Positions 1-22,718 of a DNA stretch of 64,000 nt are shown here, piece by piece. This DNA comes from Sphingomonas sp. (GTDB lineage: Bacteria; Pseudomonadota; Alphaproteobacteria; Sphingomonadales; Sphingomonadaceae). The DNA is taken from positions 489-64,488 of the forward strand of contig NZ_DATBDV010000006.1 in assembly GCF_036269755.1 (NCBI RefSeq), given 5' to 3'. Every line of letters starts with the position of its first letter. Position 1 is the stretch's first letter. The translations under genes and the position numbers were made by a program. The notes beneath the pieces were generated by a model. It was given only the letters and a program-made list of their open reading frames with translations. It had not been told where the DNA came from and did not search any database.

Positions 1-190
1 CATCCCAGAAGGCCCTCTCGCGTTCGGAAGCTGAAGGGGGGCAGGGCGGCCGCTTCGACCGGAGCTGAGTTCGCGAGCGTGGCCGCACGACCAGCCATTT
101 CGTGACGCTGGCTTTCGACAAGGTTCTGCCCGACAAGCGAGCGGACGCTGCGCCCGCCAAGCGCCGCGCGGCTGCAAAGCGAGGGGGCTT

Positions 191-3711: not shown

Positions 3712-4098
3712 ATGCGAAGCGGGGTACGCGCCGTGGTGGCCTTGGTCGGGGTGTTCAACCTGATGCTCGGGCTTGGCTTCCTGATCGACCCGGCGCAGGC
3801 GGGGCTGCGTTTCTTCCTGGCATCGCTCGGCACGCAGGGGCTGGCGACGATGCGCGCCGACTTCACTGCTTTTTTCGTGACCGGCGGGACGTTCGCGTTG
3901 ATCGCCGCCTGGCGCGCGCGGCGAGCGCCGCTGCTGGTGCCGCTGATGCTGCTCGGCGTCGCGATCGGCGGGCGTGTGATCAGCCTGATCGCGGACGGCG
4001 CGCCGGGAAAGGCGTTCATGCCGATGATCGCCGAAGCGGTGATGATCGTCATCCTGGCGTTCGGCTGGCGCTATTTTGAAGACGAGGCGGCGCGATGA
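3712..4098 (+). CDS. DUF4345-like small membrane protein
   Basis: Four hydrophobic segments; MRADFTAFF and GRVISLIADG pattern; ATGA-coupled to the sulfatase. Confidence 0.7.
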   Translation: MRSGVRAVVALVGVFNLMLGLGFLIDPAQAGLRFFLASLGTQGLATMRADFTAFFVTGGTFALIAAWRARRAPLLVPLMLLGVAIGGRVISLIADGAPGKAFMPMIAEAVMIVILAFGWRYFEDEAAR

Positions 4099-7838: not shown

Positions 7839-7979
7839 CTACGAAAGGCTGGCTTCGTTGGTGAAACCGCCTGACGTTTCCGCGCTTCCAGCCAGGAAAC
7901 GATCCACCGCCGGACGTTCCCAGGTGGGACGCGGTGCAGGATTGCGAGTGCTTACGTCCCGCTTAGGCTCATTGGTCAT
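7839..7979 (-). CDS. Lasso-type RiPP precursor peptide, 46 aa (MTNEPKRDVSTRNPAPRPTWERPAVDRFLAGSAETSGGFTNEASLS)
   Basis: AGGGGA RBS; WxxPxV leader motif; G/S-rich core with a single Glu; C-terminal Ser; lies directly downstream of the cyclase gene and has its own terminator. Confidence 0.8.
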   Translation of the reverse strand: MTNEPKRDVSTRNPAPRPTWERPAVDRFLAGSAETSGGFTNEASLS

Positions 7980-8043: not shown

Positions 8044-8094
8044 GGATTAATTGCGCATCCGCTTCCGGACGAGCCGCACATTCGCGGACGCAGC

Positions 8095-10035
8095 TCACGC
8101 GTTGCTGCCTGAAGCCTTGCGCATGAAATGGCCGCTGGTGACGCCGCGCGCGAGCGCCTGACGATACGGCATGTCGATGTCGGGCCGGTTCCATCCGCCG
8201 TCCGGCCACTGCTCGATCAGGCGCAACATACGCTCGACGTCCAGCGCGGTCGCCGCGGCGGGCACGTCCGCCAATCGGGATACCTCGTCGCGCAAGTGTT
8301 CGCGCGCCGCGGTCAGGCCTTCGTGCCAATCGATGGATTGTGCTCCGCGTCTTCGTTCCGACAACACGGCTGGCGGCAAGCGATCGGCCAGCGCATCGAG
8401 CGCGAGTGCGCGTGGCCGCCCGTCGCGCAGGAACATCTCCATCGGCACCGAAAGGCAGAACTCGATCAGCCGCCGATCGGTGCTGACGTCGCGAATGTCG
8501 GTCCCCCAGCCGGCGAGTGCGCCCTTCTGGTTATTGCCGAAATCAACTCGCCGCAGGATCCACAGACGCGTCTCGAACCCGTTCCGCCGCGGCCGATACG
8601 ACAGGTCGAGCGCATGCTCGCGCGCGCGTCGCTCGATCCCCAGTTCGTTGAAGCGGCGCATGTTGCTCGCGGTGTAGACCGACACGTCCGGGACGGGGTG
8701 GTTCTTGGCCCGATTGAGCGCGCGCCACATGGCATCGGGAAGCCAAGGCCCGAACGCCTGGACTAAGGCGCCCCCCGCGCGCATGCCCGTCTCGCGCATC
8801 GTCGCCCGCGCGGTTTGCCACAAGCGAAGCCAGTGCAGCTTGGCGGCCTGCTCGGCGAACAGCTCCAGCCCCGCATAGCTGAAGGTCGCGTTGCCCATCG
8901 TTGCCGAGAGCACGACCCCCGCGCCGCGCTTCTGCGCCGCGCCGTTGATCGCGTTCCACCAATGCTGAATGTCGCTGTTCAACAGCGGTCGGTCGAACAG
9001 GTAGAAGTCGCGGTCGAGATCGTCGAGCATCGTCCGCGCACCGGTCCTGACCGTGACATGCTCGACATTGGGATAGAGCCCGGCGGTCGCCGCGGCGAGC
9101 GCGCTTTCGTCGCCGATGCGATTGGCGGGAACGAAGCCGTCATAGCCCGCCCGCGGTGCCGAAGTGAACGCGAGCACCCGACCCCCGCTTTGCGCCATGA
9201 GCCGCGCCGCCGTCGCGGTCGTCGCCCCGCTATCGAGCCCGCCGCTCAAATGCGTGGCGACAAGGCCGTTAGTCCCGCGCAGACGCGCCGCAATCGCGCG
9301 GTCGAGCTGTTCGCGGAGCGCTTCGGCATAATCCGTCGGCCTGCCGAGCTTCAACAGTCCGGGCGAAGGCTCCCAATGGCGCGTCGTTGCCACGCCGGAG
9401 CGCGAGACCGTGACGATCTGCCCCGCCTCGACCCGACTGACGCCTTCGTAAAAGCTGCGCGGGCCGTATTCCGGCAGCAGCGCGAGGAATTCCGCATTGC
9501 GCACCGCGTCCGGCGCGCGCGGAACCCGCTCGAGCGCGTGCAGTCCCTTGGGCATCGACGCAACCGCCACGAACCCGTCCGCCAAGTGATAATGGAGCGC
9601 TCGGCCGCCGATATGGTCGCGGGCGAGCACCAACTGCTGCTCGGCCGAGTCCCATAACACGAACGCATAATCGCCCGCGATATGCTCGAACAATGCGCTG
9701 CCCCAGCGCTCCCAGGCGCGGAGCAGGAACGCGGAATCGGGCAGCATCACGGAGTCTTGCGGATCGATCGCCAGCGCGCTCGCCAGGTCGTCGCGATTGT
9801 CGAGACGCACGTCCGCGACGAGGACGAAGCGTCCGCCACCGCCGACCAGCGGCTGGCGGTCGTACCGGTCCTCCGCGAGCAATTGATAGCGGCAGCAGCC
9901 CAGCGCGATCGCGCCATCGTCCCAATCGACGTTGCCGTGTGGCCCGTACATGCGTTGTGCGGCCATGATGCGGCCGCAATCGGCAAGCGCGTCGGGCCGG
10001 CCGTCGATGTTCCAGATCGCCGCCAAGGCGGTCAT
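8095..10035 (-). CDS. Lasso cyclase-like macrolactam synthetase (asparagine synthetase fold)
   Basis: ATP-pyrophosphatase loop HLSGGLDSG; RDHIGGRALHY; DRRLIEFCLSVP; the N-terminus (MTALAAIW) lacks the catalytic Cys of glutamine-hydrolysing AsnB; adjacent to RRE and B2 genes. Confidence 0.9.
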   Translation of the reverse strand: MTALAAIWNIDGRPDALADCGRIMAAQRMYGPHGNVDWDDGAIALGCCRYQLLAEDRYDRQPLVGGGGRFVLVADVRLDNRDDLASALAIDPQDSVMLPDSAFLLRAWERWGSALFEHIAGDYAFVLWDSAEQQLVLARDHIGGRALHYHLADGFVAVASMPKGLHALERVPRAPDAVRNAEFLALLPEYGPRSFYEGVSRVEAGQIVTVSRSGVATTRHWEPSPGLLKLGRPTDYAEALREQLDRAIAARLRGTNGLVATHLSGGLDSGATTATAARLMAQSGGRVLAFTSAPRAGYDGFVPANRIGDESALAAATAGLYPNVEHVTVRTGARTMLDDLDRDFYLFDRPLLNSDIQHWWNAINGAAQKRGAGVVLSATMGNATFSYAGLELFAEQAAKLHWLRLWQTARATMRETGMRAGGALVQAFGPWLPDAMWRALNRAKNHPVPDVSVYTASNMRRFNELGIERRAREHALDLSYRPRRNGFETRLWILRRVDFGNNQKGALAGWGTDIRDVSTDRRLIEFCLSVPMEMFLRDGRPRALALDALADRLPPAVLSERRRGAQSIDWHEGLTAAREHLRDEVSRLADVPAAATALDVERMLRLIEQWPDGGWNRPDIDMPYRQALARGVTSGHFMRKASGSNA

Positions 10036-10146: not shown

Positions 10147-11079
10147 ATGCCGAGCGAGGTCCGCCATTATCGATTGTTCGGCCTGACGCTGGCGTCGGCG
10201 ATCGAATTACCCGACTTGCGCGAAGTGACGGAGTCGCGCCCGGACGTAACGATTACGATCGGTGAGGTGCCGATGCCGGCGCAATTGTCGGAGGTCGGGC
10301 TCAACCTCGTCGACGACGCTGCCGTCCTGCCGGTCGTTGGTGCGGGTCGCTATCGCGTGCGCGGCGGCACATCGATCCAAATCGATCCCGAGCCCGGCGC
10401 ACCGGCCGCGAATATCCGACTGTTCCTGCTTGGCTCTGCGATGGGAGCGTTGTTGCACCAGCGGGGGATGCTGCCGCTCCACGCCAATGCGATCGACGTC
10501 GGGGGCAGGGCGATCGCCTTTATCGGCCGGTCGGGGGCGGGCAAGTCGACGCTCGCCGCCGCGTTCCACGACCACGGCTGCGCGCTCCTGTCGGACGATA
10601 TCTGTGTCGTGACCGAGGGCCCCGACGGCGGCCAGTGCGCCCAACCCGGAATCCCGCGCGTGCGGTTATGGCGCGATGCGGTCGAACGCAGCGGTCGAGA
10701 CGCCGCTGGCCTGGATGTTGCTTATGCCGGGGTGGAGAAATATGTCCTGCAGATCGGCGAGACCTACGCCGATACGCCGCTGCCGCTCGCCGCGATCTAC
10801 GTGCTCGCCGAGCCGGATGAAGGCGATGCTCCCCCCGAAATCGCGCCGATCACGGGCGCCGCGGCAATCCGCGCACTCGCCGTCAACACCTACCGCGGCG
10901 CGTACGTGCCCCTTGTCGGCAGTCCGGCGGACCATTTCGCGCAATGCCAAGCGCTAGTCCGCGACGTTCCGATTTTCCTGCTTCGTCGTCCCTGGCGCGC
11001 CGATCGGATCGACGAGACCGTCCGCCTGGTCACCGCGCAAGTTGCGCGTGTCAGCGAGGATCGCCACTTTCCGAAATAA
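10147..11079 (+). CDS. HPr kinase-like lasso-peptide kinase
   Basis: LHANAI, GRSGAGKST (Walker A) and LLSDD motifs in lasso-cluster context. Confidence 0.88.
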   Translation: MPSEVRHYRLFGLTLASAIELPDLREVTESRPDVTITIGEVPMPAQLSEVGLNLVDDAAVLPVVGAGRYRVRGGTSIQIDPEPGAPAANIRLFLLGSAMGALLHQRGMLPLHANAIDVGGRAIAFIGRSGAGKSTLAAAFHDHGCALLSDDICVVTEGPDGGQCAQPGIPRVRLWRDAVERSGRDAAGLDVAYAGVEKYVLQIGETYADTPLPLAAIYVLAEPDEGDAPPEIAPITGAAAIRALAVNTYRGAYVPLVGSPADHFAQCQALVRDVPIFLLRRPWRADRIDETVRLVTAQVARVSEDRHFPK

Positions 11080-11353
11080 TCACGATGCCGTCGCTCGACA
11101 GGTCTTGCAGCAGGTCGCGGACATCCGCCTCGCACGTCGCGGGATCGACCTCGAACTCTTCGGCCAACGCCGCGCAAATCTCCGCGAACGACCGGGGCTG
11201 CTCGATCAACTGCCAAGTCCGCGTCGCGGTCGCGTTGAACCCGTAGCACATGCCGTTGCCGATATGCAGGCCGACGATCTCGCCATCCATTTCGGCCTCG
11301 ATCAGCCCGGCGCCTCGCCGCACCAGAATGTTGCTCGTATCGCTCCAATCCAT
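11051..11353 (-). CDS. PqqD-family RiPP recognition element (B1/RRE)
   Basis: 100 aa; EMDGEIVGL...YGFNATATRTWQLIEQPRSFAEICAALAEEFEVD..TCEADVRDLLQDL is the PqqD pattern; it is the C-terminal part of track ORF 11051..11965. Confidence 0.9.
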   Translation of the reverse strand: MDWSDTSNILVRRGAGLIEAEMDGEIVGLHIGNGMCYGFNATATRTWQLIEQPRSFAEICAALAEEFEVDPATCEADVRDLLQDLSSDGIVIISESGDPR

Positions 11354-11455: not shown

Positions 11456-11878
11456 GTGGGGCGACACGGGATCACGGATTGGGCGTTGGCCGCCGAAGCA
11501 TTCGCGTCGCTCGCGGTCGCGCGGCTGACGCTGCTGGTCGTGCCGTTCCCGGTGCTGGCGAAACGTCTGTCGGCGCCGCTTGTCAAACGCCGCTCGGTTT
11601 CCGCCGCCATTCCCCGGCGCGTCGGCTGGGCGGTCGCAGCGGCGGGCCGGCACAGCCCGATACGGTTCGTCTGTTTTCCGCAAGCGCTGGCGGCAAGGGC
11701 AATGCTGCATCGGCGCGGGGTTCCGACGATGCTGCATTACGGTGTTGCCAAGACCGAGGGCAAAGTTCACGCGCATGTCTGGCTGAGCGCGGCGGGCACC
11801 GACGTCGTCGGATACGTCAATAAAGCGGATTTCAAGCTGGTCGCGACGTTTCCTGCGCAAGCGATTTGTGCGGAATGA
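11456..11878 (+). CDS. Lasso leader peptidase B2 (transglutaminase-like); start uncertain
   Basis: CFPQALA (catalytic Cys), LHYGV and HAHVWL (His) motifs. Confidence 0.88.
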   Translation: MGRHGITDWALAAEAFASLAVARLTLLVVPFPVLAKRLSAPLVKRRSVSAAIPRRVGWAVAAAGRHSPIRFVCFPQALAARAMLHRRGVPTMLHYGVAKTEGKVHAHVWLSAAGTDVVGYVNKADFKLVATFPAQAICAE

Positions 11879-13104
11879 CGATGCCCGGCGCGCCTGGCTT
11901 GCGGGGAAAGGCGACGGACAGGAACGCGGCAATGCGCTTTCTGTGCCTTCTCTGTTCGCAAGCAACGCCCGATGGCTCGGCGGACGCCGCCGCGCTCGCG
12001 AGGCGCATCGCCGACTGGAACGCGTTCGAGCACCTGGTGGCGCGCCATCGGGTGGCCGGGCTGGTGCATGCCGGGCTCAAACGCCAACCGCAGATCGTCG
12101 TCCCTGTTACCCCGCGTCAGTCGATCGCGGGCGCTGCCGCGACGATCGCGCGCGAGAACATGGCGATGGCGCTGGAGACGGTGCGGCTTCAGCGGCTGTT
12201 CGACGAAGCCGGTGTGGACGCGATCTTCTTCAAGGGCGCGACGCTGGCGCAGCAGGTCTACGGTACTTTCGCGATCCGGCACGGCAAGGACGTGGATTTC
12301 GTCGTTTCGCCGGGCGACGTCGAACGATGCGTCGCGCTGCTCGAGCAAGACGGTTACGCGCTGTTCGATCTGCCGTCGCCGCTCAGCCCGCGGCAGTGGC
12401 GCGGGCTGCTGCAGTTCGCGATGGAGATCGTCATGATCCATCGCGACCGGCACATTCAGATCGAACCGCACTGGCAGCTTAGCGACAACAGGCGGCTCCT
12501 ACCGCTCGCAACGCTGGCCCGGTCGGCGAGCAAGGAATGGACCCGGATCGGCGACGTCGCGATCAGGACGTTCCATCCCGACGACTCGTTCGCGTATCTC
12601 TGCATGCACGGGGCGCGAAGCGGCTGGTATCGCCTGAAATGGCTGACGGACATCGACGCGCTCCTCAACCCCGCAGGGGAGGACGATCTTGTAAGGCTTT
12701 ATCGTCATTCCGAAAGCTTGGGCGTCGGTCCGGCAACGGCGCTTGCACTATCGCTCTATGCCCAGCTGTTCGGGCGCCCGGTCCCGGCCGAAATACTCGC
12801 TCGCGTAAGTGGCAACTGGACGTTGCGAAGGCTGCGATCCTTGAGCCTTTCCAATCTCGATCGGCCGCGGTCGATGCCGGGTGCGCGTCGCACATTCATG
12901 CTGCACATGCTGCTCGCCGCGGCACACGGCTATCTGCTGTCCGAGCTCTGGCGGTGGAGCGTCTCGGTGATTGACGTCGTCAGGGTTCCGCTCCCGCGAC
13001 CGCTTCACTTCCTGTACCCGGCCTTGCGGTTCCCCCTTTTGATCGGACGGCGGGTCGCGGCCTTGTTCGCCAAAAGCTCGGCTGATGACGCCCCCGCAGC
13101 CTAG
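11875..13104 (+). CDS. Nucleotidyltransferase family protein (lasso-cluster associated)
   Basis: FKGATLAQQVYG..IRHGKDVDFVV, IEPHWQL and WYRLKWLTDID motifs; ATGA overlap with B2. Confidence 0.85.
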   Translation: MTMPGAPGLRGKATDRNAAMRFLCLLCSQATPDGSADAAALARRIADWNAFEHLVARHRVAGLVHAGLKRQPQIVVPVTPRQSIAGAAATIARENMAMALETVRLQRLFDEAGVDAIFFKGATLAQQVYGTFAIRHGKDVDFVVSPGDVERCVALLEQDGYALFDLPSPLSPRQWRGLLQFAMEIVMIHRDRHIQIEPHWQLSDNRRLLPLATLARSASKEWTRIGDVAIRTFHPDDSFAYLCMHGARSGWYRLKWLTDIDALLNPAGEDDLVRLYRHSESLGVGPATALALSLYAQLFGRPVPAEILARVSGNWTLRRLRSLSLSNLDRPRSMPGARRTFMLHMLLAAAHGYLLSELWRWSVSVIDVVRVPLPRPLHFLYPALRFPLLIGRRVAALFAKSSADDAPAA

Positions 13105-15588: not shown

Positions 15589-15611
15589 ATCAAACGAATA
15601 TGTTGTTTGAT
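15589..15611. promoter_or_regulatory. Candidate operator ATCAAAC-N9-GTTTGAT at the NRPS operon start
   Basis: Perfect 7-bp AT-rich inverted repeat overlapping the first possible start codons. Confidence 0.3.
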
Positions 15612-17457
15612 GGCGCTCATGACCAGCCAATCTTCCCAAGCTCGGGCGTCGTCCGAAGCGTTCGCCTTTGTTCCCAGTGCAGCGGGTGTTCCCGCCGATG
15701 CGATCACGCGCGTGGCGCGCGCGCATCCCGACCGGACCGCATTGATAGCGCCCTGCGGGACGCTCAGCTATGGCGAGTTGCTCGACCGCGCGGACCGCGT
15801 TGCGGCGTGGCTGCGAACCAAGGGCGTCGGCGCGGAAAGCCTGGTCGGTATTTGCATGGAGCGGTCGTTTGACCAGCTGACGGTCGCGCTGGGCATATGG
15901 AAAGCGGGCGGCGCCTATCTGCCGCTCGATCCATCCTGGCCCGACGGCCGCTTGCGGATGATCGTCGAGGATGCCGCGTGCGCGGTCGTGGTCGGCCGCA
16001 ATGAGGTGGTCGAGCGGCTGGCGGGGGTCGATACCCCGGTCGTCGCGCTCGACTGGAACACCTTGCCCGCCGCCGAGGAAGCGTCCGCGACGCCGGTCGA
16101 TGCGGAGGGCTTGGCCTATGTGATTTACACCTCGGGCACGACCGGCAAGCCCAAGGGCGTCGAGGTGAGCCACGGCAACCTCGCGCATCTGATCGCGTGG
16201 CATAACCACGCGTTCGGCGTGACCGCCGACGATCGCGGCAGTCACCTTGCCGGGCTCGGGTTCGACGCCTCGATCTGGGAAGTCTGGCCGTATCTCTGCG
16301 CCGGTGCCTCGGTCGTGCTCGCGCCCGATGAGGTCCGCACCTCCGACACCAAGCTGCGCGCCTGGCTGATCGTTCAGGGCGTCACCGTCGCGTTCGTTCC
16401 CACCGCGCTGGCGCAGGAGCTGATCCGCGACGATTGGGCGAGCGGCGCCAAGTTGCGCTACCTGCTGACCGGCGCCGACCGTCTGCTCGGGCGTCCCCGC
16501 GCGGGGTTGCCGTTCGCGCTGGTCAACAATTACGGTCCGACCGAATGCACCGTGGTCGCGGCGTCCGAAGTCGTGCCGCCCGAAGCGGTAGAGAAGGGTA
16601 TCCCGGCAATCGGCCGCCCGATCGGCGCGACGACGATCCACATCCTCGGCGCCGAAGGCCAGCCGGTCGCAACCGGCGAGCAGGGCGAAATCTTCATCGG
16701 CGGGCCGTCGGTCGCGCGTGGTTACCGCCACCTGCCGGCGATGACCGCCGAGAAGTTCGTGACGATCGCCGGGGAGCGCTGCTATCGCACCGGCGACCGC
16801 GGATCGTGGCGACCGGACGGGCAGATCGCGTTCCATGGCCGGGTCGATGACCAGGCCAAGGTGCGCGGCCATCGCGTCGAGCCCGAGGAAACCGCGCATG
16901 TGCTGCGCGAGCATCCCGCGGTCCGCGCCGCCGCGGTGATCGCGGCGCCGGCCGCCGATGGCAGCGACATGCTGGTCGGCTATGTCGTCGCCAGCGACAC
17001 CGTCACCGCCGAGGATCTGCGCGATCACCTCGCCAATACGCTTCCCGAATATATGATCCCATCCGCATTCGTGCGGATCGACGCGCTGCCGCTCACCGCC
17101 AACGGAAAGCTCGACAAGAAGGCGCTGCCCGAACCGTCGGACGACAATGCGCTGGCGTCGGCCGGGTTCGCCACCGCGCAGACCGCGGCGGAGGAACGGC
17201 TGGTCGAGATCCTGACCGCGGTGCTCGGCCGCGGCAATGTCGGGATCGACGACAATTTCTTCCTGCTCGGCGGGCATTCGCTGCTCGGCACCCAAGTCGT
17301 GCTGCGCGCCGGCGAAGCGTTCGGCATCGACCTGACGCTGCGCGACCTGTTCCAGGCGCCGACGATCCGTCAGCTCGCGGCGCGGATCGAGGAAATCTTC
17401 CTGCGCATGATCGATGAAATGAGCGACGACGAAGCGCAAGCGCGCGCCGCCGAATAG
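15607..17457 (+). CDS. Stand-alone NRPS A-T didomain, predicted Leu-specific (start at 15607, 15610 or 15619)
   Basis: A3 YVIYTSGTTGKPKG, YGPTE, YRTGD and NGKLD; PCP FFLLGGHSL; specificity code read by eye as DAWFLGNVVK, the Leu signature. Confidence 0.92.
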   Translation: MMALMTSQSSQARASSEAFAFVPSAAGVPADAITRVARAHPDRTALIAPCGTLSYGELLDRADRVAAWLRTKGVGAESLVGICMERSFDQLTVALGIWKAGGAYLPLDPSWPDGRLRMIVEDAACAVVVGRNEVVERLAGVDTPVVALDWNTLPAAEEASATPVDAEGLAYVIYTSGTTGKPKGVEVSHGNLAHLIAWHNHAFGVTADDRGSHLAGLGFDASIWEVWPYLCAGASVVLAPDEVRTSDTKLRAWLIVQGVTVAFVPTALAQELIRDDWASGAKLRYLLTGADRLLGRPRAGLPFALVNNYGPTECTVVAASEVVPPEAVEKGIPAIGRPIGATTIHILGAEGQPVATGEQGEIFIGGPSVARGYRHLPAMTAEKFVTIAGERCYRTGDRGSWRPDGQIAFHGRVDDQAKVRGHRVEPEETAHVLREHPAVRAAAVIAAPAADGSDMLVGYVVASDTVTAEDLRDHLANTLPEYMIPSAFVRIDALPLTANGKLDKKALPEPSDDNALASAGFATAQTAAEERLVEILTAVLGRGNVGIDDNFFLLGGHSLLGTQVVLRAGEAFGIDLTLRDLFQAPTIRQLAARIEEIFLRMIDEMSDDEAQARAAE

Positions 17458-17466
17458 GACGCATCC

Positions 17467-18729
17467 ATGACCGACCAAGCACCGATCAAGGCGGCCGCCG
17501 CGCTCGACCCGAGCCTGAGCCTGTTCCAGCTGCTCGAGCCGGCGATCCACGCCGACCCGTTCCCGTTCTACAAGCGCCTGCGCGAGGAAGCGCCGGTGGC
17601 GTGGGACCCGTTCATGCACACCTGGGTCGTCACTCGGTACGAGGACGTCCATTTCGTGCTGAAGGAATTCAGCGCGGATCGCACGCCCGACGTCGCCAAG
17701 ATGGAGGCGCTCGGCCTGCCGTCGCTCGGCCCGGTCGCCGATGTGATGGCCAAGCAGATGCTGTTCCTCGACGCGCCCGCGCACACGCGGCTGCGCAAGC
17801 TCTGCATGAGCGCGTTCACCCCGCGCCGGGTCGAGGCGATGGAAGGCAAGATCCACGAAATCGCGCACCAGCTGATCGACGACCATATCGGCAATGGTCA
17901 GATGGAACTGATCGCCGATTTTGCCGAGCCGTTTCCGGCGATCGTCACCGCCGGTCTGCTCGGCGTGCCGCTCGACGATCATCGCCAGCTCAAGGCGTGG
18001 TCGGCGACCTTCGCGGAGATGCTCGGCAATTTCCAGCATAACCCCGATCGCATCCGCGACGTGCTCAAGTGCGTCGCCGATATGACCGGCTATTTCCGTG
18101 ACGCGGTTCGCGAGCAGGAGCGAAACCCGCACGACGGGCTGATCCGCTCGCTGATGGACGCCGAAGTCGACGGCCAGCGGCTTAGCGAGGACGAGGTCAT
18201 CGCCAACACCATCGTGACGATGGTCGGCGGGCAGGAGACCACGACCAACCTGATGGGCAACGGCCTGCTGACGCTGATCCGCCAGCCCGACAAGCTCGCG
18301 CAGTTGCGCGACAATCCGGAGATCATCGCCAGCGCCGTCGAGGAATTGCTGCGCTTCGAGACCCCAAGCCAGCACACCGCACGGATCTGCCCCGCCGATA
18401 CGATGATGGGCGGCCAATTGATCCGCAAGGGCGAGGCGGTGATGGCGGTGATGGCGGCGGGCAATCGCGATCCGGAACGCTTTGCCGATCCCGACACGCT
18501 CGATCTGACGCGCACCGACAACCGCCATCTGGCGTTCGGCTGGGCGGCGCATTTCTGCTTCGGCGCGGCCTTGGCGCGGATGGAGGCCCGGATCGCGTTT
18601 CCCGCGCTTGTCGGCCGGCTCCAGAACCTCAGCGTGACGAGCGATATCCTCGAATGGCGGACCAATTCCGGACTGCGCGGGCTCACCGCGTTGCCGATCG
18701 CGTTCCGCGCGGGGGAGCGGGCCGCGTGA
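17467..18729 (+). CDS. Cytochrome P450, probably acting on a carrier-protein-bound substrate
   Basis: I-helix GGQETT, EELLR (ExxR) and heme motif FGWAAHFCFG; lies between the two NRPS genes. Confidence 0.95.
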   Translation: MTDQAPIKAAAALDPSLSLFQLLEPAIHADPFPFYKRLREEAPVAWDPFMHTWVVTRYEDVHFVLKEFSADRTPDVAKMEALGLPSLGPVADVMAKQMLFLDAPAHTRLRKLCMSAFTPRRVEAMEGKIHEIAHQLIDDHIGNGQMELIADFAEPFPAIVTAGLLGVPLDDHRQLKAWSATFAEMLGNFQHNPDRIRDVLKCVADMTGYFRDAVREQERNPHDGLIRSLMDAEVDGQRLSEDEVIANTIVTMVGGQETTTNLMGNGLLTLIRQPDKLAQLRDNPEIIASAVEELLRFETPSQHTARICPADTMMGGQLIRKGEAVMAVMAAGNRDPERFADPDTLDLTRTDNRHLAFGWAAHFCFGAALARMEARIAFPALVGRLQNLSVTSDILEWRTNSGLRGLTALPIAFRAGERAA

Positions 18730-21700
18730 ACGCCCACGCCGCGCTGTCGGATTCGAAACGACAGTTGCTCGAAAAGATGATGCGCGGCGGCATCGCGCCC
18801 GCCGACAAGCCCGCACCGATCCAGCCGCGCCGGCCGGGCGCGGCGATCCCGCTATCGGCCGACCAGCGCCAGGTGTGGCTCCACGCCATCATGGCGCCGG
18901 ACGTGCCGCTGTATAACGAATCGATCACGATCCATCGCTTCGGCAGCTTCGATCGCGACGCGATGGCGCGCAGCGTCAACGAGATATTGCGCCGTCACGA
19001 AGCGTGGCGGACGGCGTTCGTCGAAGAAGCGGGCGAGCTCGTCCAGCACGTCCGTCCGCACCGCGACATCGAGCTGCCGTTCGACGATGTCAGCCACTTG
19101 CCGGAAGACCAGCGCGATGCCGCCGCGCTCAAGATCGGCAGCGATGACGCCCGCCGCGCGATCGACCTGTCCGACGCCCCATTGTTCCGCGCGCGGATCG
19201 TCAAGCTGTCCGACGACAATCACCGGCTCTATTTCACGCTCCACCACATCATCTTCGATGGCGTCGCGATCTATCGCGTGATCGTGCCCGAACTGGCGGC
19301 GATCTATGAAGCGTTCGCGCGCGGCGAGCCGTCGCCGCTGCCGATGCCGGCATTGCAATATGGCGACTATGCGATCTGGCAGCGGGAGCATCTCAAGAGC
19401 GCGCCGATCCAGAAGCAGATCGATTATTGGCGCACGACGTTGGCCGACGCGCCGGCCAAGCTCGAAATCCCCGGTGACCGCATCAAGGCGGCGCGGCCGA
19501 CGCACGCCGGGTCGATGGAAGTGTTCCAGATCCCGCACGATCTGACCGAGGCGTTGAAGGAGGCGAGCCGGCGCGAAGGCGTGACGCTCTACATGACCTT
19601 GCTCGCGGCCTATCACGCGCTGCTGCATCGTTATTCGGGCGAGGAGGACATTATCGTCGGCGGGGTCACCGATCTTCGCCGCCGGCCCGAGCTCGACCAG
19701 GTGGTCGGCTATTTCCTCAACACCATCGCATTGCGCGCCAAGCCGAAGGGCGACCTCGCATTTCGCGATTTCGTGCGCCACGTGCGCGAGACCGTGCTCG
19801 GCGCGCTCGGCGCGAGCGAGGCGCCGTTCGACGAGGTGGTGCGCGCGCTCGACGTGCGGCGCGAGCCCGGCACGCATCCTTTGTTCAACTGCCTGTTCTC
19901 GATCGAGCCGCCGGTCGAGCCGTTCGCCGACGGCTGGGACTTGACCCAGATGGACGTGGTGGTCGGGGGCGCGAAGTTCGACCTCTACCTCGAACTCGAC
20001 GAGCGGCCCGACGGGATGATCGGGCGGTTCCTCTATTCGACCGAGCTTTACGATCCATCGACGATCCGCCGGATGATCGGGCATTGGCTCACGATATTGC
20101 GCGCGGTGGCCGAGGACATGGGGTGCCCGATCCGCGACTTGCCGTTGCTCGATTCGGTGGAGTCGCAGTTGCTGGTCGACTGGAACAACACCGCGCGGCG
20201 GCACAAGGCGAAATTGCTGGTCGAGGCGGTCTCGGCGCAGGCGAAGGCGCGGCCCGATGCGGTGGCGGTGCGGTTCGGCGACCAGTCGATAAGCTACGCC
20301 GCGCTCGATGCCCGGGCGCAAGCCATCGCCGCGGCGTTGCGCGCGGCAGGGTTGGGCAAGAGCGACCTCGTCGGCGTCTGTCTCGATCGCTCGACCGACA
20401 TGGTTGCAGGGTTGCTTGGCGTGTTGCGGATCGGCGCGGCGTACCTTCCGCTCGATCCCGACTTCCCGCCGGCGCGGCTCGATTACATCGTCGGGGAGGC
20501 CGGCGCCAAGGCGTTGCTATCCGAACGCAAGCTGGATGCCGTGCTGCCCGGATGCGCGCTGCCGCGCGTCCTGGTGGACGATATCGGCGCTTCGGCGACC
20601 GACGTGCCCGCTGCGGAAATCGCCGCCGGCGACCTTGCCTATGTCCTCTACACCTCGGGCTCGACCGGCCGCCCCAAGGGCGTCGAGATCAGTCACGGCG
20701 CGCTGATCAACCTGCTCGCGTCGATGCGCGAGCAGCCTGGGTTCGGCGCGGGCGATTCGTTGCTCGCAGTCACCACCCTGTCGTTCGACATCGCGATGCT
20801 CGAACTGTTCCTGCCGCTGATCGCCGGCGGCGAGTTGATCGTCGCGCCGCGCAACAGCGCAGTCGATCCGCGCGCGCTGATCGACCTGATCCATACTGCC
20901 AACCCGAGCGTCATGCAGGTGACCCCAGCGACGTGGCGCGCGCTGGTCGAGGCCGGTTGGCAAGGCTCACCGAGCTTGCGGGTTCTGTGCGGCGGCGAAG
21001 CCTTCCCGCGCGACCTGGCCGAAGCGTTGCTGATGCGTGCGGGCGAGGTGTGGAACGTCTATGGCCCCACCGAGACCACGATCTGGTCGACCGTCGCGCG
21101 CGTGACCGGCAGCACCGGCCCGGTCCCGATCGGCCGCCCGATCGCCAACACGAGCATCCACATCCTCGACCGCTACGGCAACACCGCGCCGATCGGCGTG
21201 ACCGGCGAATTGTTCATCGGCGGCGCGGGTCTCGCGAAGGGCTATCGCAACCGTCCCGATCTTACCGCGGAGCGCTTCGTCGAGGTGCGCGGCGAGCGGC
21301 TCTACCGCACCGGCGACCTCGCGCGCTGGCGTCCGGACGGGACAATCCTGTGCCTCGGCCGTGTCGACAATGACGAGAAGATTCGCGGCTATCGCGTGTC
21401 AGTCGAGGAGATCGAGGGTGCGCTCGCAACGCATCCTGAGGTTGCCGCCGCCGCCGTCCGCAGCTGGCCGGACGCGTCGGGTGAACGCGCGCTCGCCGCC
21501 TATGTCGTCGCGCACGGTGGCGCCGAGCCGAGCCGCGCGGAGATGCGCGAGCACCTCGCGCAGACGCTGCCCCAATACATGATCCCCTCGACCATCGAGC
21601 TGTTGCCCGCGCTGCCGATGACGCCCAACGGCAAGATCGACCGCAAGGCGCTGCCCAAGCCGGGCGGGAACGCCGCCGCCGCGATCGAGCCGCCACAGGG

Positions 21701-22718
21701 CGAAACCGAGCAAGCGCTGGCCGCGATCTGGTGCGACATCTTGCGCATCCCCGCGGTCGGCCGCGACGACAGTTTCTTCGAGCTCGGCGGTCATTCGTTG
21801 CTCGTCGCGCGGCTGCTCGTGCGGATCGAGCAGCATTGGGGCCGCCGCATCGGCATGGCAGAATTCTTCGGCGCGCCGGTGCTCTCCAAGCTCGCCACAC
21901 TGATCGACGGTGACGCCGGCGTCGAGGTGGGCGCGCTCGTCCCGCTCCAGCCGCTCGGCGACGAACTGCCGCTATTGTGGATCGATGGCGGCCCGACCTT
22001 CCTGGCGCTTGCCAACGCGATGGGCACTGATCGGCCGTTCCTCGGCCTCGCGCTCGGCCCGATCCTCGAGCGCGACCTCAAGCCCGGCATGCGGTTCGAG
22101 GATATCGCCGCCGCCGTGGTTGCGGTGATCCGCCAGCGCCGCCCGCGCGGACCGTATCTAATCGGCGGCTGGTGCACCAACGGCATCCTGGCGTTCGAGA
22201 TCGCGCGCCAGCTTCGCGCCGACGGCGACGACGTTCCGCTGCTGGCACTCGGCCACACGATGAATCCGGTCGCGTTCCAGGAGATCACCACCGCGCAGAT
22301 GCGGATGAGCAAGGCGCGCTACCATCTCGGCGTGTGGAACAGCCTGCCGTTCAACCGGCGCCTCGGCTATGCCCTCGAGCGCGCGCGCGGGATGCTGGAG
22401 GAAGTCGGCATGGCCGACGCCGACCGCCCGGACGGCCGCTATCGGCCTTTCGCGGCGGTGATGGAGCAGGCGGCGTACGGCTACACGCCCGGCGTCTATG
22501 ACGGCGCGGTCGCGTTGTTCCAGCCGACCGAACGCCTCGACGTGCTCGACACGCGGCCGGGTTGGGCGACCATCGTTACGGGCCCGCTCCAAGCGCACGA
22601 CATTCCCGGCAGCCACGGCACGATGACCGAGCCGCCCAATGCCGACGTCTTCGCGGCCCGGCTGCGCGACTCGATCGAGCGCGCCTTGAAGCCCGGACAG
22701 AGCGCGGCGGCAGCGTGA
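18726..22718 (+). CDS. NRPS termination module C-A-T-TE, predicted Gly-specific, Cys-type thioesterase
   Basis: C domain HHIIFDG; A domain YTSGSTGRPKG with code DILQLGVIWK (Gly signature); PCP FFELGGHSL; TE GGWCTNG...GSHGTM; GTGA overlap with the P450. Confidence 0.93.
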   Translation: MNAHAALSDSKRQLLEKMMRGGIAPADKPAPIQPRRPGAAIPLSADQRQVWLHAIMAPDVPLYNESITIHRFGSFDRDAMARSVNEILRRHEAWRTAFVEEAGELVQHVRPHRDIELPFDDVSHLPEDQRDAAALKIGSDDARRAIDLSDAPLFRARIVKLSDDNHRLYFTLHHIIFDGVAIYRVIVPELAAIYEAFARGEPSPLPMPALQYGDYAIWQREHLKSAPIQKQIDYWRTTLADAPAKLEIPGDRIKAARPTHAGSMEVFQIPHDLTEALKEASRREGVTLYMTLLAAYHALLHRYSGEEDIIVGGVTDLRRRPELDQVVGYFLNTIALRAKPKGDLAFRDFVRHVRETVLGALGASEAPFDEVVRALDVRREPGTHPLFNCLFSIEPPVEPFADGWDLTQMDVVVGGAKFDLYLELDERPDGMIGRFLYSTELYDPSTIRRMIGHWLTILRAVAEDMGCPIRDLPLLDSVESQLLVDWNNTARRHKAKLLVEAVSAQAKARPDAVAVRFGDQSISYAALDARAQAIAAALRAAGLGKSDLVGVCLDRSTDMVAGLLGVLRIGAAYLPLDPDFPPARLDYIVGEAGAKALLSERKLDAVLPGCALPRVLVDDIGASATDVPAAEIAAGDLAYVLYTSGSTGRPKGVEISHGALINLLASMREQPGFGAGDSLLAVTTLSFDIAMLELFLPLIAGGELIVAPRNSAVDPRALIDLIHTANPSVMQVTPATWRALVEAGWQGSPSLRVLCGGEAFPRDLAEALLMRAGEVWNVYGPTETTIWSTVARVTGSTGPVPIGRPIANTSIHILDRYGNTAPIGVTGELFIGGAGLAKGYRNRPDLTAERFVEVRGERLYRTGDLARWRPDGTILCLGRVDNDEKIRGYRVSVEEIEGALATHPEVAAAAVRSWPDASGERALAAYVVAHGGAEPSRAEMREHLAQTLPQYMIPSTIELLPALPMTPNGKIDRKALPKPGGNAAAAIEPPQGETEQALAAIWCDILRIPAVGRDDSFFELGGHSLLVARLLVRIEQHWGRRIGMAEFFGAPVLSKLATLIDGDAGVEVGALVPLQPLGDELPLLWIDGGPTFLALANAMGTDRPFLGLALGPILERDLKPGMRFEDIAAAVVAVIRQRRPRGPYLIGGWCTNGILAFEIARQLRADGDDVPLLALGHTMNPVAFQEITTAQMRMSKARYHLGVWNSLPFNRRLGYALERARGMLEEVGMADADRPDGRYRPFAAVMEQAAYGYTPGVYDGAVALFQPTERLDVLDTRPGWATIVTGPLQAHDIPGSHGTMTEPPNADVFAARLRDSIERALKPGQSAAAA

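Follow-up and report, generated by a model that had tools for sequence, protein, structure and literature searches.

A Sphingomonas lasso-type precursor with four residues past its predicted ring acceptor belongs to a family of short, Ser-terminated cores

An open reading frame (ORF) of 46 codons, located at positions 7979 to 7839 on the minus strand of a 64,000-nucleotide stretch of Sphingomonas sp. DNA (assembly GCF_036269755.1, contig NZ_DATBDV010000006.1, positions 489 to 64,488; to be referred to as the window), is probably the genuine precursor gene of a lasso peptide pathway of the paeninodin type, with split B proteins, a kinase and a nucleotidyltransferase, as judged from its sequence. 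The predicted core has 12 residues, and four of them, ASLS, follow the acidic residue expected to close the ring. Related precursors are found in many other genomes, and the short tail, as read from their predicted cores, is a conserved trait of the family, beyond what a reading of the single sequence could show. A possible but less probable reading is that this family makes the smallest known mechanically interlocked peptides, lassos of 12-14 residues in which an enzymatically installed C-terminal O-phospho(glyco)serine would be the lower plug.

The precursor gene and its elements are as follows.

7979..7839 (-), precursor gene, 46 codons and a TAG stop, encoding MTNEPKRDVSTRNPAPRPTWERPAVDRFLAGSAETSGGFTNEASLS.
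7878..7979 (-), predicted leader of 34 residues, MTNEPKRDVSTRNPAPRPTWERPAVDRFLAGSAE, with W(-15), P(-12), V(-10), A(-2) and E(-1), placed by the family columns and the paeninodin register.
7842..7877 (-), predicted core of 12 residues, TSGGFTNEASLS, with ring T1-E8 and tail A9-S10-L11-S12; the junction is taken from the family alignment and the paeninodin register.
7854..7856 (-), GAA codon of Glu8, the predicted isopeptide acceptor and the sole acidic residue in the core.
7842..7844 (-), codon of the C-terminal Ser12, the predicted site of O-phosphorylation and further modification.
7805-7771 (-), intrinsic terminator with a GC-rich stem of 16 pairs and a T-run, beginning 34 nt past the precursor stop.

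The TAG stop is read at 7841-7839 (-), and a GGGGA ribosome-binding site is located 8 nt upstream of the ATG. A second in-frame ATG is present upstream, at 8081, in the list of ORFs. The start at 7979 is preferred because the leaders of the family carry about 20 residues ahead of the Trp. The terminator stretch has a folding energy of -42 kcal/mol (z = -4.6), and none of 200 shuffled sequences was equally stable. Under the inferred junction, the motif for the RiPP (ribosomally made, post-translationally modified peptide) recognition element (RRE), WERPAV, spans -15 to -10, and the final residue of the peptide is Ser. Past its leader, the precursor has a single acidic residue, Glu (7856-7854), and as a result exactly four residues (ASLS) follow the ring acceptor at any cleavage site. 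The four-residue tail claimed in a preliminary description of this DNA, which was made from the letters alone, is therefore borne out.

Relatives were collected from contigs of one genome per species. A scan of these contigs with the window cyclase as a single sequence gave no matches, whereas a scan with an alignment of this cyclase and two relatives succeeded and produced 80 loci, with cyclases 44-59% identical to that of the window. No homologue of the 46-residue precursor came up in a word-based protein search, and precursors were instead recovered from six-frame translations of the 80 loci, with a filter that required an acid at core position 7-9 and a terminal Ser. There are 73 such precursors, with 70 unique cores; as relatives, they are statistically non-independent.

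The 73 precursors share the leader WxRPxVxRLxAGxAE and an invariant Ser at the C-terminus. Trp is present at -15 in 72 of them, Pro at -12 in all 73, and Val or Leu at -10 in 63. Arg is found at -13 in 47 and at -8 in 39, Ala at -5 in 53 and Gly at -4 in 42. At the junction, the residue at -2 is Ala in 57 precursors and Thr in 12 (six as 'TE'), and that at -1 is Glu in 63. Asp or Glu is found at core position 8 in 59/73 and at position 9 in the other 14. The number of residues past this acid is 4 in four precursors, 5 in 14, 6 in 45 (the mode), 7 in four and at least 8 in six, such that 67 of the 73 have between 4 and 7. The core is 14 residues long in 42/73.

A control scan was carried out with the leader motif alone ([WY]..P.[VLIFMA].{7}[AT]E), leaving the core unconstrained. 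It gave 70 matches in 60 of the 80 loci, compared to 7 in reversed translations. Among these matches, 62 are short Ser-ended ORFs with the stop 12-21 residues past 'AE', all but one having cores of 12-17 residues, and a single one of the short-ORF matches does not end in Ser. The remaining matches are mostly chance ones inside long ORFs. Since the unconstrained scan shows the same picture, the family is genuine and its core features are not an artefact of the filter.

The family is found in at least 60 loci from Sphingomonadales, Hyphomicrobiales, Micropepsales, Caulobacterales, Rhodospirillales-type metagenome-assembled genomes (MAGs) and Acidobacteriota. The hosts are mostly Allosphingosinicella, Sphingomonas, Rhizomicrobium, Xanthobacteraceae/Pseudolabrys and Caulobacter, with a few Acidobacteriota MAGs. 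In the literature searched, which was limited, no description was found of the WxRPxVxRLxAGxAE leader or of 12-14-residue Ser-terminated cores. This mini-core family is widespread in soil Alphaproteobacteria and apparently undescribed.

A maximum-likelihood tree of 86 cyclases, made as a quick IQ-TREE build, places the window cyclase in a clade of seven rows (approximate likelihood-ratio test 91, not starred), inside a starred clade of 11 rows (98). The precursors of the seven loci are as follows.

Window: core TSGGFTNE-ASLS, four-residue tail.
L038, Sphingomonas MAG: core ITSADVNAD-DIFS, four-residue tail.
L045, Sphingomonas psychrotolerans Cra20 (cultured): core GASGVGGD-TFFS, four-residue tail.
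L028: core AAGAPVAD-VVYS, four-residue tail.
L030: tail VVFAS.
L031: tail AGIYS.
L046: tail GFTFS.

All seven have 4-5 residues past the ring, and in six of them a bulky residue is located directly ahead of the terminal Ser. The cyclases of this clade are merely 49-59% identical to that of the window and the cores are unrelated in sequence, yet the tail length is kept. Judged from these comparisons, the short tail is a trait of the clade and not an accident. In all four of the four-residue tails, the +3 residue (Niso+3) is bulky (L/F/F/Y), and Niso+3 is the earliest upper-plug position in known lassos (PMC12214591). The kinase and the nucleotidyltransferase are both found within 7 kb of the cyclase in five of the seven members, and L038 has the kinase alone.

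Several other members of the family have features of their own. Cultured hosts include Sphingomonas psychrotolerans Cra20 (GASGVGGD-TFFS), Sphingomonas sp. 7/4-4, Sphingomonas sp. BE123 and Sphingosinicella sp. YJ22. Family cyclases and precursors are also present in a Terriglobia MAG (L065), a Bryobacterales MAG (L075) and a 'delta proteobacterium' MAG (L092); their cyclases nest among alphaproteobacterial sequences in the tree, which suggests horizontal transfer or a binning error. A Pseudolabrys MAG (L062) has three tandem precursors, at 601, 936 and 1279, with near-identical leaders and variable cores. In a Caulobacter MAG (L031) there are precursors at 4062, 4544 and 4831, one typical and two odd: one of the odd copies ends in ...VDLGV without Ser, and the other has its sole acid at position 6. 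The family precursor at about 6639 in a Hyphomicrobiales MAG (L034) has a long core with two Cys residues, GGAAPCNDGQGVGCGPPGNHS, possibly a disulfide-stabilised variant within the same cyclase clade. In another genome of the same genus (G021, contig C131; locus L022), B2, B1, a kinase and a cyclase 43% identical to that of the window are present, and no recognisable precursor was found within the 14 kb fetched.

The precursor is the final gene of a compact lasso-type cluster, identified by profile searches and reading of the ORFs.

8095..10035 (-), lasso cyclase (C); the ORF is open up to an ATG at 10167, and homologues begin at Met45 (MTALA...).
10147..11079 (+), HPr-kinase-like peptide kinase (K), from motif reading and weak hidden Markov model (HMM) matches.
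11051..11353 (-), B1, PqqD-type RRE; PF05402 69.7 bits, NF033536 58 bits.
11456..11878 (+), B2 leader peptidase, transglutaminase-like; NF033537 67.1 bits (cut-off 33), PF13471 66.1 bits.
11866..13104 (+), NTP_transf_5 nucleotidyltransferase-like tailoring enzyme (N); PF14907 163.3 bits.

The cyclase matches PF00733 with 88.7 bits (cut-off 21) and GATase_7 with 73.9 bits, and its best NCBIfam match is NF033535, lasso isopeptide cyclase (252 bits, E 9.5e-75). The alignment with relatives and all tblastn matches begin at residue 42-45, and the true start is probably at 10035, which would leave a divergent intergenic region of 111 bp ahead of the kinase gene. The HMM scores of the kinase are weak (TIGR04352 35 bits, PF07475 21 bits). 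Its motif, H-x14-G-x2-G-x-G-K-S-x15-D-D, is intact in the translation (LHANAIDVGGRAIAFIGRSGAGKSTLAAAFHDHGCALLSDD), with spacing equal to that of H148/G163/G166/G168/K169/S170/D186/D187 in BsfK (PMC10368454). The features of the split-B kinase type are thus found here, namely a cyclase, discrete B1 and B2 proteins, the kinase motif, and a precursor with the RRE motif and a C-terminal Ser; the exception is position -2, which is Ala in the window precursor and not Thr.

The closest guide to the cleavage site is paeninodin. Its cluster (pade, Paenibacillus dendritiformis C454) also has a cyclase, split B1 and B2 and an HPr-kinase homologue, and a nucleotidyltransferase is found in related clusters. 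The paeninodin precursor is processed between MKKQYSKPSLEVLDVHQTM and AGPGTSTPDAFQPDPDEDVHYDS (AGPGTSTPD...), with the mature product beginning at Ala1 (PMC11594732), and its leader has Y(-15) as the aromatic residue, Pro(-12), Leu(-10) and Thr(-2) (PMC11594732). The window precursor likewise has an aromatic residue at -15, Pro at -12 and an aliphatic residue at -10, and a C-terminal Ser, which is the kinase site in paeninodin. The W, P, V/L and A/T columns of the family fall exactly in the paeninodin register, and the -2 column can be tied to the known Thr(-2) rule because 12 members retain Thr there. Since this register is that of an experimentally processed peptide, the window core would be TSGGFTNEASLS, with a Thr1-Glu8 ring of ordinary size. 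There are differences as well: paeninodin has Thr(-2), a ring of 9 residues, a tail of 14 and a core of 23, in comparison to Ala(-2), the conserved Glu(-1), a ring of 8, a tail of 4 and a core of 12 in the window precursor, and no ABC exporter adjoins the window cluster. The preliminary description had given the paeninodin-like spacing as one of two readings, with W at -15, Ala at -2 and a T1-E8 ring, and had proposed that homologous precursors be aligned to see if the acid is at position 8 after an A-E junction. The family columns given above support both the spacing and the position of the acid. Its alternative suggestion of an unprecedented ring size did not hold, as a ring of 8 residues is ordinary, whereas its other suggestion, a branched-cyclic (tadpole) peptide, may be right.

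Pseudomycoidin (psm, Bacillus pseudomycoides DSM 12442) is the closest functional precedent for a tail without side-chain plugs. Its kinase and an NTP_transf-type enzyme place a phosphate and then hexoses on the C-terminal Ser (PMC6993621). When made without K and N the product is a branched cycle, while the L21F mutant is threaded, and a bulky phospho-glycosyl Ser was proposed by the authors to lock the tail (PMC6993621). Pseudomycoidin has a 9-residue ring and a tail that runs past residue 23, and what it lacks is a bulky residue, not length. In contrast, the tail of the window peptide is shorter than any known loop plus tail.

A proteobacterial clade of kinase-type lasso clusters was recognised as 'putative' in 2016 (PMC5067487). 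Two putative proteobacterial clusters with a kinase, from Sphingobium yanoikuyae ATCC 51230 (SyanK/SyanA) and Bradymonas sediminis (bsf), have K, split B1/B2 and C as in the window, and bsf also has N. SyanK polyphosphorylates the C-terminal Ser of its precursor (PMC9266682), and no structure of the mature SyanA product is reported in the literature searched (PMC8498205). BsfA has Ile in place of Thr(-2), the sole experimental precedent for a residue other than Thr (PMC10368454). The bsf precursor differs from that of the window in its leader register, -17/-14/-12, and in the target of BsfK, which is Ser3 (PMC10368454).

With regard to size, huascopeptin, with 13 residues and a 7-residue ring, is the smallest of the isolated lassos that a 2025 review names. 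By arithmetic, it has 6 residues past the ring acid, as compared to 4 in the window peptide. Huascopeptin and chaxapeptin (15 residues) resemble the window peptide in having class II-type cores without Cys and a very short loop and tail. With an 8-membered ring, chaxapeptin would have 7 residues past the ring acid. Linear polyphosphorylated peptides (LPP) of Bacillota share with the window cluster an RRE, a kinase, nucleotidyltransferase-type tailoring and a [Y/W]xxPx[LVI] leader (PMC13381572). However, LPP clusters have no cyclase, and the studied example is phosphorylated in an N-terminal fragment of the core (PMC13381572), whereas in the window cluster the cyclase is intact and core position 8 holds a conserved acid.

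From homology to paeninodin, pseudomycoidin and ThcoK/SyanK, we infer where the leader is cut, which ring forms, that the peptide is phosphorylated, and in what order this happens. B1 would bind the W(-15)xxP(-12)xV(-10) motif of the leader, as discrete lasso RREs bind [Y/W]xxPx[L/V/I/F/A] (PMC13381572). The HprK-like kinase would then add phosphate, perhaps more than once, to the hydroxyl of the C-terminal Ser12 while the precursor is still linear, since kinases of the paeninodin type act on this residue of the linear precursor (PMC9266682; PMC8498205). The NTP_transf_5 enzyme may extend the phosphate with one or more hexoses or a nucleotide; a homologue, PsmN, adds hexose(s) to the phospho-Ser of pseudomycoidin (PMC6993621; PMC9266682). 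B2 would cut after the conserved Ala(-2)-Glu(-1), and the cyclase would link the Thr1 amine with the Glu8 side chain to form an 8-residue macrolactam that bears the tail Ala-Ser-Leu-Ser(P).

The solved lasso structures contain 14-33 residues, none with a loop shorter than 3 or a tail shorter than 2, and LassoPred accordingly discards sequences in which fewer than 5 residues follow the isopeptide residue (PMC12214591). With 4 residues past Glu8, the window peptide is one below this empirical minimum, and the family mode of 6 is at the known size floor. The earlier statement that either reading of the junction breaks the rules is therefore correct for the tail, with 4 residues vs the LassoPred minimum of 5, and incorrect for the ring, with its ordinary 8. 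The candidate plugs are Leu11 (Niso+3) above the ring and, below it, only Ser12, which would need a phosphate or glycan to act as one. Because the four-residue tail is under the shortest solved loop plus tail, the unmodified peptide is expected to be an unthreaded lariat, and unmodified pseudomycoidin is likewise unthreaded. For the fully modified product, we lean slightly towards a lariat that is unthreaded or only transiently threaded. A lasso, with Leu11 above the ring and phospho(glyco)-Ser below, is a possible but less probable outcome. In such a lasso, Ala9-Ser10-Leu11 would form a loop of 3 residues, the smallest known, and the modified Ser12 below the ring would replace the missing tail residue. 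The plug would already be in place on the linear precursor when the ring closes around the 3-residue loop and a single modified residue. The modified Ser need not pass through the ring, as the kinases act before ring closure. The preliminary description had left out a C-terminal phospho(glyco)-Ser as plug, as proposed for pseudomycoidin.

Several observations weigh against the assignment of this pathway and its steps. The 252 bits of the cyclase fall under the NF033535 cut-off of 525 bits. BsfK phosphorylates Ser3 and not the C-terminal Ser (PMC10368454), and the window core also has Ser2 and Ser10. The peptide of S. yanoikuyae was still 'putative' in a 2021 review (PMC8498205). Since no isolated product of any proteobacterial kinase-type lasso cluster was found in the literature searched, every chemical step rests on homology. 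The bulky +3 pattern comes from only four related sequences and is no more than a hint.

Two features of the core columns also count against the junction chosen here and favor cleavage one residue later. Column 1 is hypervariable (D 14, A 10, T 9, Q 6, G 6, I 6, N 6, L 5; n=73) and overlaps only partly with the ring-forming N-terminal residues seen experimentally, which are Gly, Cys, Ser and Ala, plus Asn in metanodin (PMC12670498). Column 2 is Gly, Ser or Ala, typical for position 1 of a lasso, in 55/73, which fits a 7-residue ring. The junction would then be Glu(-2)/Thr(-1) and the core SGGFTNEASLS, with a Ser1-Glu7 ring and still four residues in the tail, and the acid would be Glu7, which is within positions 7-9 as is Glu8. 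Moreover, canonical leaders conserve -2 and have a variable -1, such that the conserved Glu would occupy -2, and seven-residue rings are known (huascopeptin). However, the aromatic/Pro motif would be moved to -16/-13, compared to -15/-12 in paeninodin, and the Thr of 12 members would be located at -3 instead of -2. The rings of 59/73 members would be 7-membered, which is rare, whereas the -15 register yields the usual mix of 8 (59) and 9 (14). Gly at position 2 is found in paeninodin as well (AGPG...). We consider this later cleavage unlikely. The hypervariability of column 1 reflects either unusually tolerant enzymes or cleavage one residue later; should the -15 register hold, the ring-forming residues would include new ones, namely Thr1 here and Asp, Gln, Ile, Leu and Val elsewhere in the family.

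The other explanations are far less probable. The classical spacing (aromatic -17, Pro -14, Thr -2), also considered in the preliminary description, gives the core GGFTNEASLS with a 6-residue Gly1-Glu6 ring, and in this one peptide there is indeed a Thr two residues before Gly-Gly. This Thr is a variable core residue, present in 9/73, and the spacing would demand 6-residue rings in 59/73 members, while known rings have 7-9 residues and 6-residue rings are unknown (PMC6993621; 2025 review). It also disagrees with the paeninodin register, and was rejected as very improbable. A lasso of conventional size would be restored if the Glu of 'AGSAE' were the acceptor, with cleavage about 8 residues upstream and the core RFLAGSAE-TSGGFTNEASLS, 20 residues with a 12-residue tail; the conserved Glu (63/73), otherwise unexplained, would have a role. 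However, 10/73 members have no acid in this column and still have D/E at core position 8/9, and the RRE motif would be only 3 residues from the scissile bond, vs 10 in paeninodin. Contrary to RiPP logic, the core would then be the conserved block and the tail the hypervariable one, and the distant kinase-type precursors of L023-L025, in the same W..P register, lack the Glu and have their acid at W+22/23. This reading was also rejected, with hardly any weight left to it. Finally, the lack of a peptide homologue in the word-based search would suit a decaying or truncated gene copy, or a sequencing artefact, without a product. Against this, the ribosome-binding site, the terminator, the leader motif and all five enzyme genes are intact, and three other loci, with cyclases 52-59% identical and including that of S. 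psychrotolerans Cra20, have independent cores of 12-13 residues with four-residue tails. As the stop position is shared by relatives whose cores have diverged (ASLS, VVYS, TFFS, DIFS), a sequencing error in the stop codon is very unlikely; the artefact reading was rejected on this conserved stop position, and decay is as remote a prospect as the two preceding explanations.

Lasso peptides are prized as ultra-stable scaffolds, and the minimum size that can be threaded is of practical interest. Cores that structure-prediction pipelines discard as invalid (fewer than 5 residues past the ring) are found here as a conserved, widespread family with intact machinery. Threaded products would mean that a steric plug can be replaced by a post-translational group, and would lower the size floor of natural rotaxanes to 12 residues. 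Unthreaded ones would mean that the lasso cyclases of an entire clade are retained for making simple lariats, which would be relevant to the selection that these enzymes are under. In addition, the family would add Thr, Asp, Gln, Ile, Leu and Val to the N-terminal residues that form the ring and would document an Ala(-2)/Glu(-1) cleavage site. The size limit of threading is directly testable, since cultured strains carry members of the family.

The organization of the pathway varies in the family. In the Allosphingosinicella clade with 6-residue tails, most loci show only A, B1 and C within 7 kb, and no B2, kinase or nucleotidyltransferase.

Loci of this A-B1-C type: L057, L063, L066, L070-L072, L074, L076, L077, L080-L085, L087, L088, L090, L091, L094, L095, L097-L099, L101 and L105.

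In all five A-B1-C genomes tested, B2 and a kinase 44-50% identical are present elsewhere, at times 10-15 kb away on the same contig, and the Allosphingosinicella-type pathway is thus dispersed.

The genome of the window contains other lasso loci. A second precursor of the family is cut by the window edge.

Window 1..34 (+), 3' end of the second family precursor (C6:373-522 in its own genome), MPTDPAPAPAPTPDTRQPWTPPVIHAIRAGDAQ followed by AGPTPVIPEGPLAFGS.

Its ring comprises 9 residues and its tail 7, the leader ends in Ala(-2)Gln(-1), and the ribosome-binding site is AAGGGA. It is 7.8 kb from the cluster, with unrelated genes in between, and a scan of the whole genome showed no cyclase of its own nearby, which makes it a possible second substrate of the window cluster. 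On contig C18, at about 192-194 kb (L021), there are only A, B1 and a cyclase 47% identical to that of the window, with the nearest B2 61 kb away. The precursor at this locus, QGPFYLPDNAFGS, has the core QGPFYLPD-NAFGS, a 5-residue tail and Thr(-2)Glu(-1); K, N and B2 are probably borrowed in trans. On contig C23, at about 160-164 kb (L023), K, B1 and C are found with a normal 21-residue core, SLVNNAGPD-GVSSYSSISYGS.

Among the genes neighboring the window cluster there is no ABC exporter (D) or isopeptidase, which are accessory features and not strictly defining. The neighbors encode a sulfatase, FGE, hydrolases, an MBL-fold protein, a TetR regulator, a secreted repeat protein and a molybdopterin oxidoreductase. 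At 15607-22718 (+), 2.5 kb past the lasso cluster, the ORF list shows an operon of the nonribosomal peptide synthetase type, with large adenylation-domain-like ORFs and a P450-like ORF.

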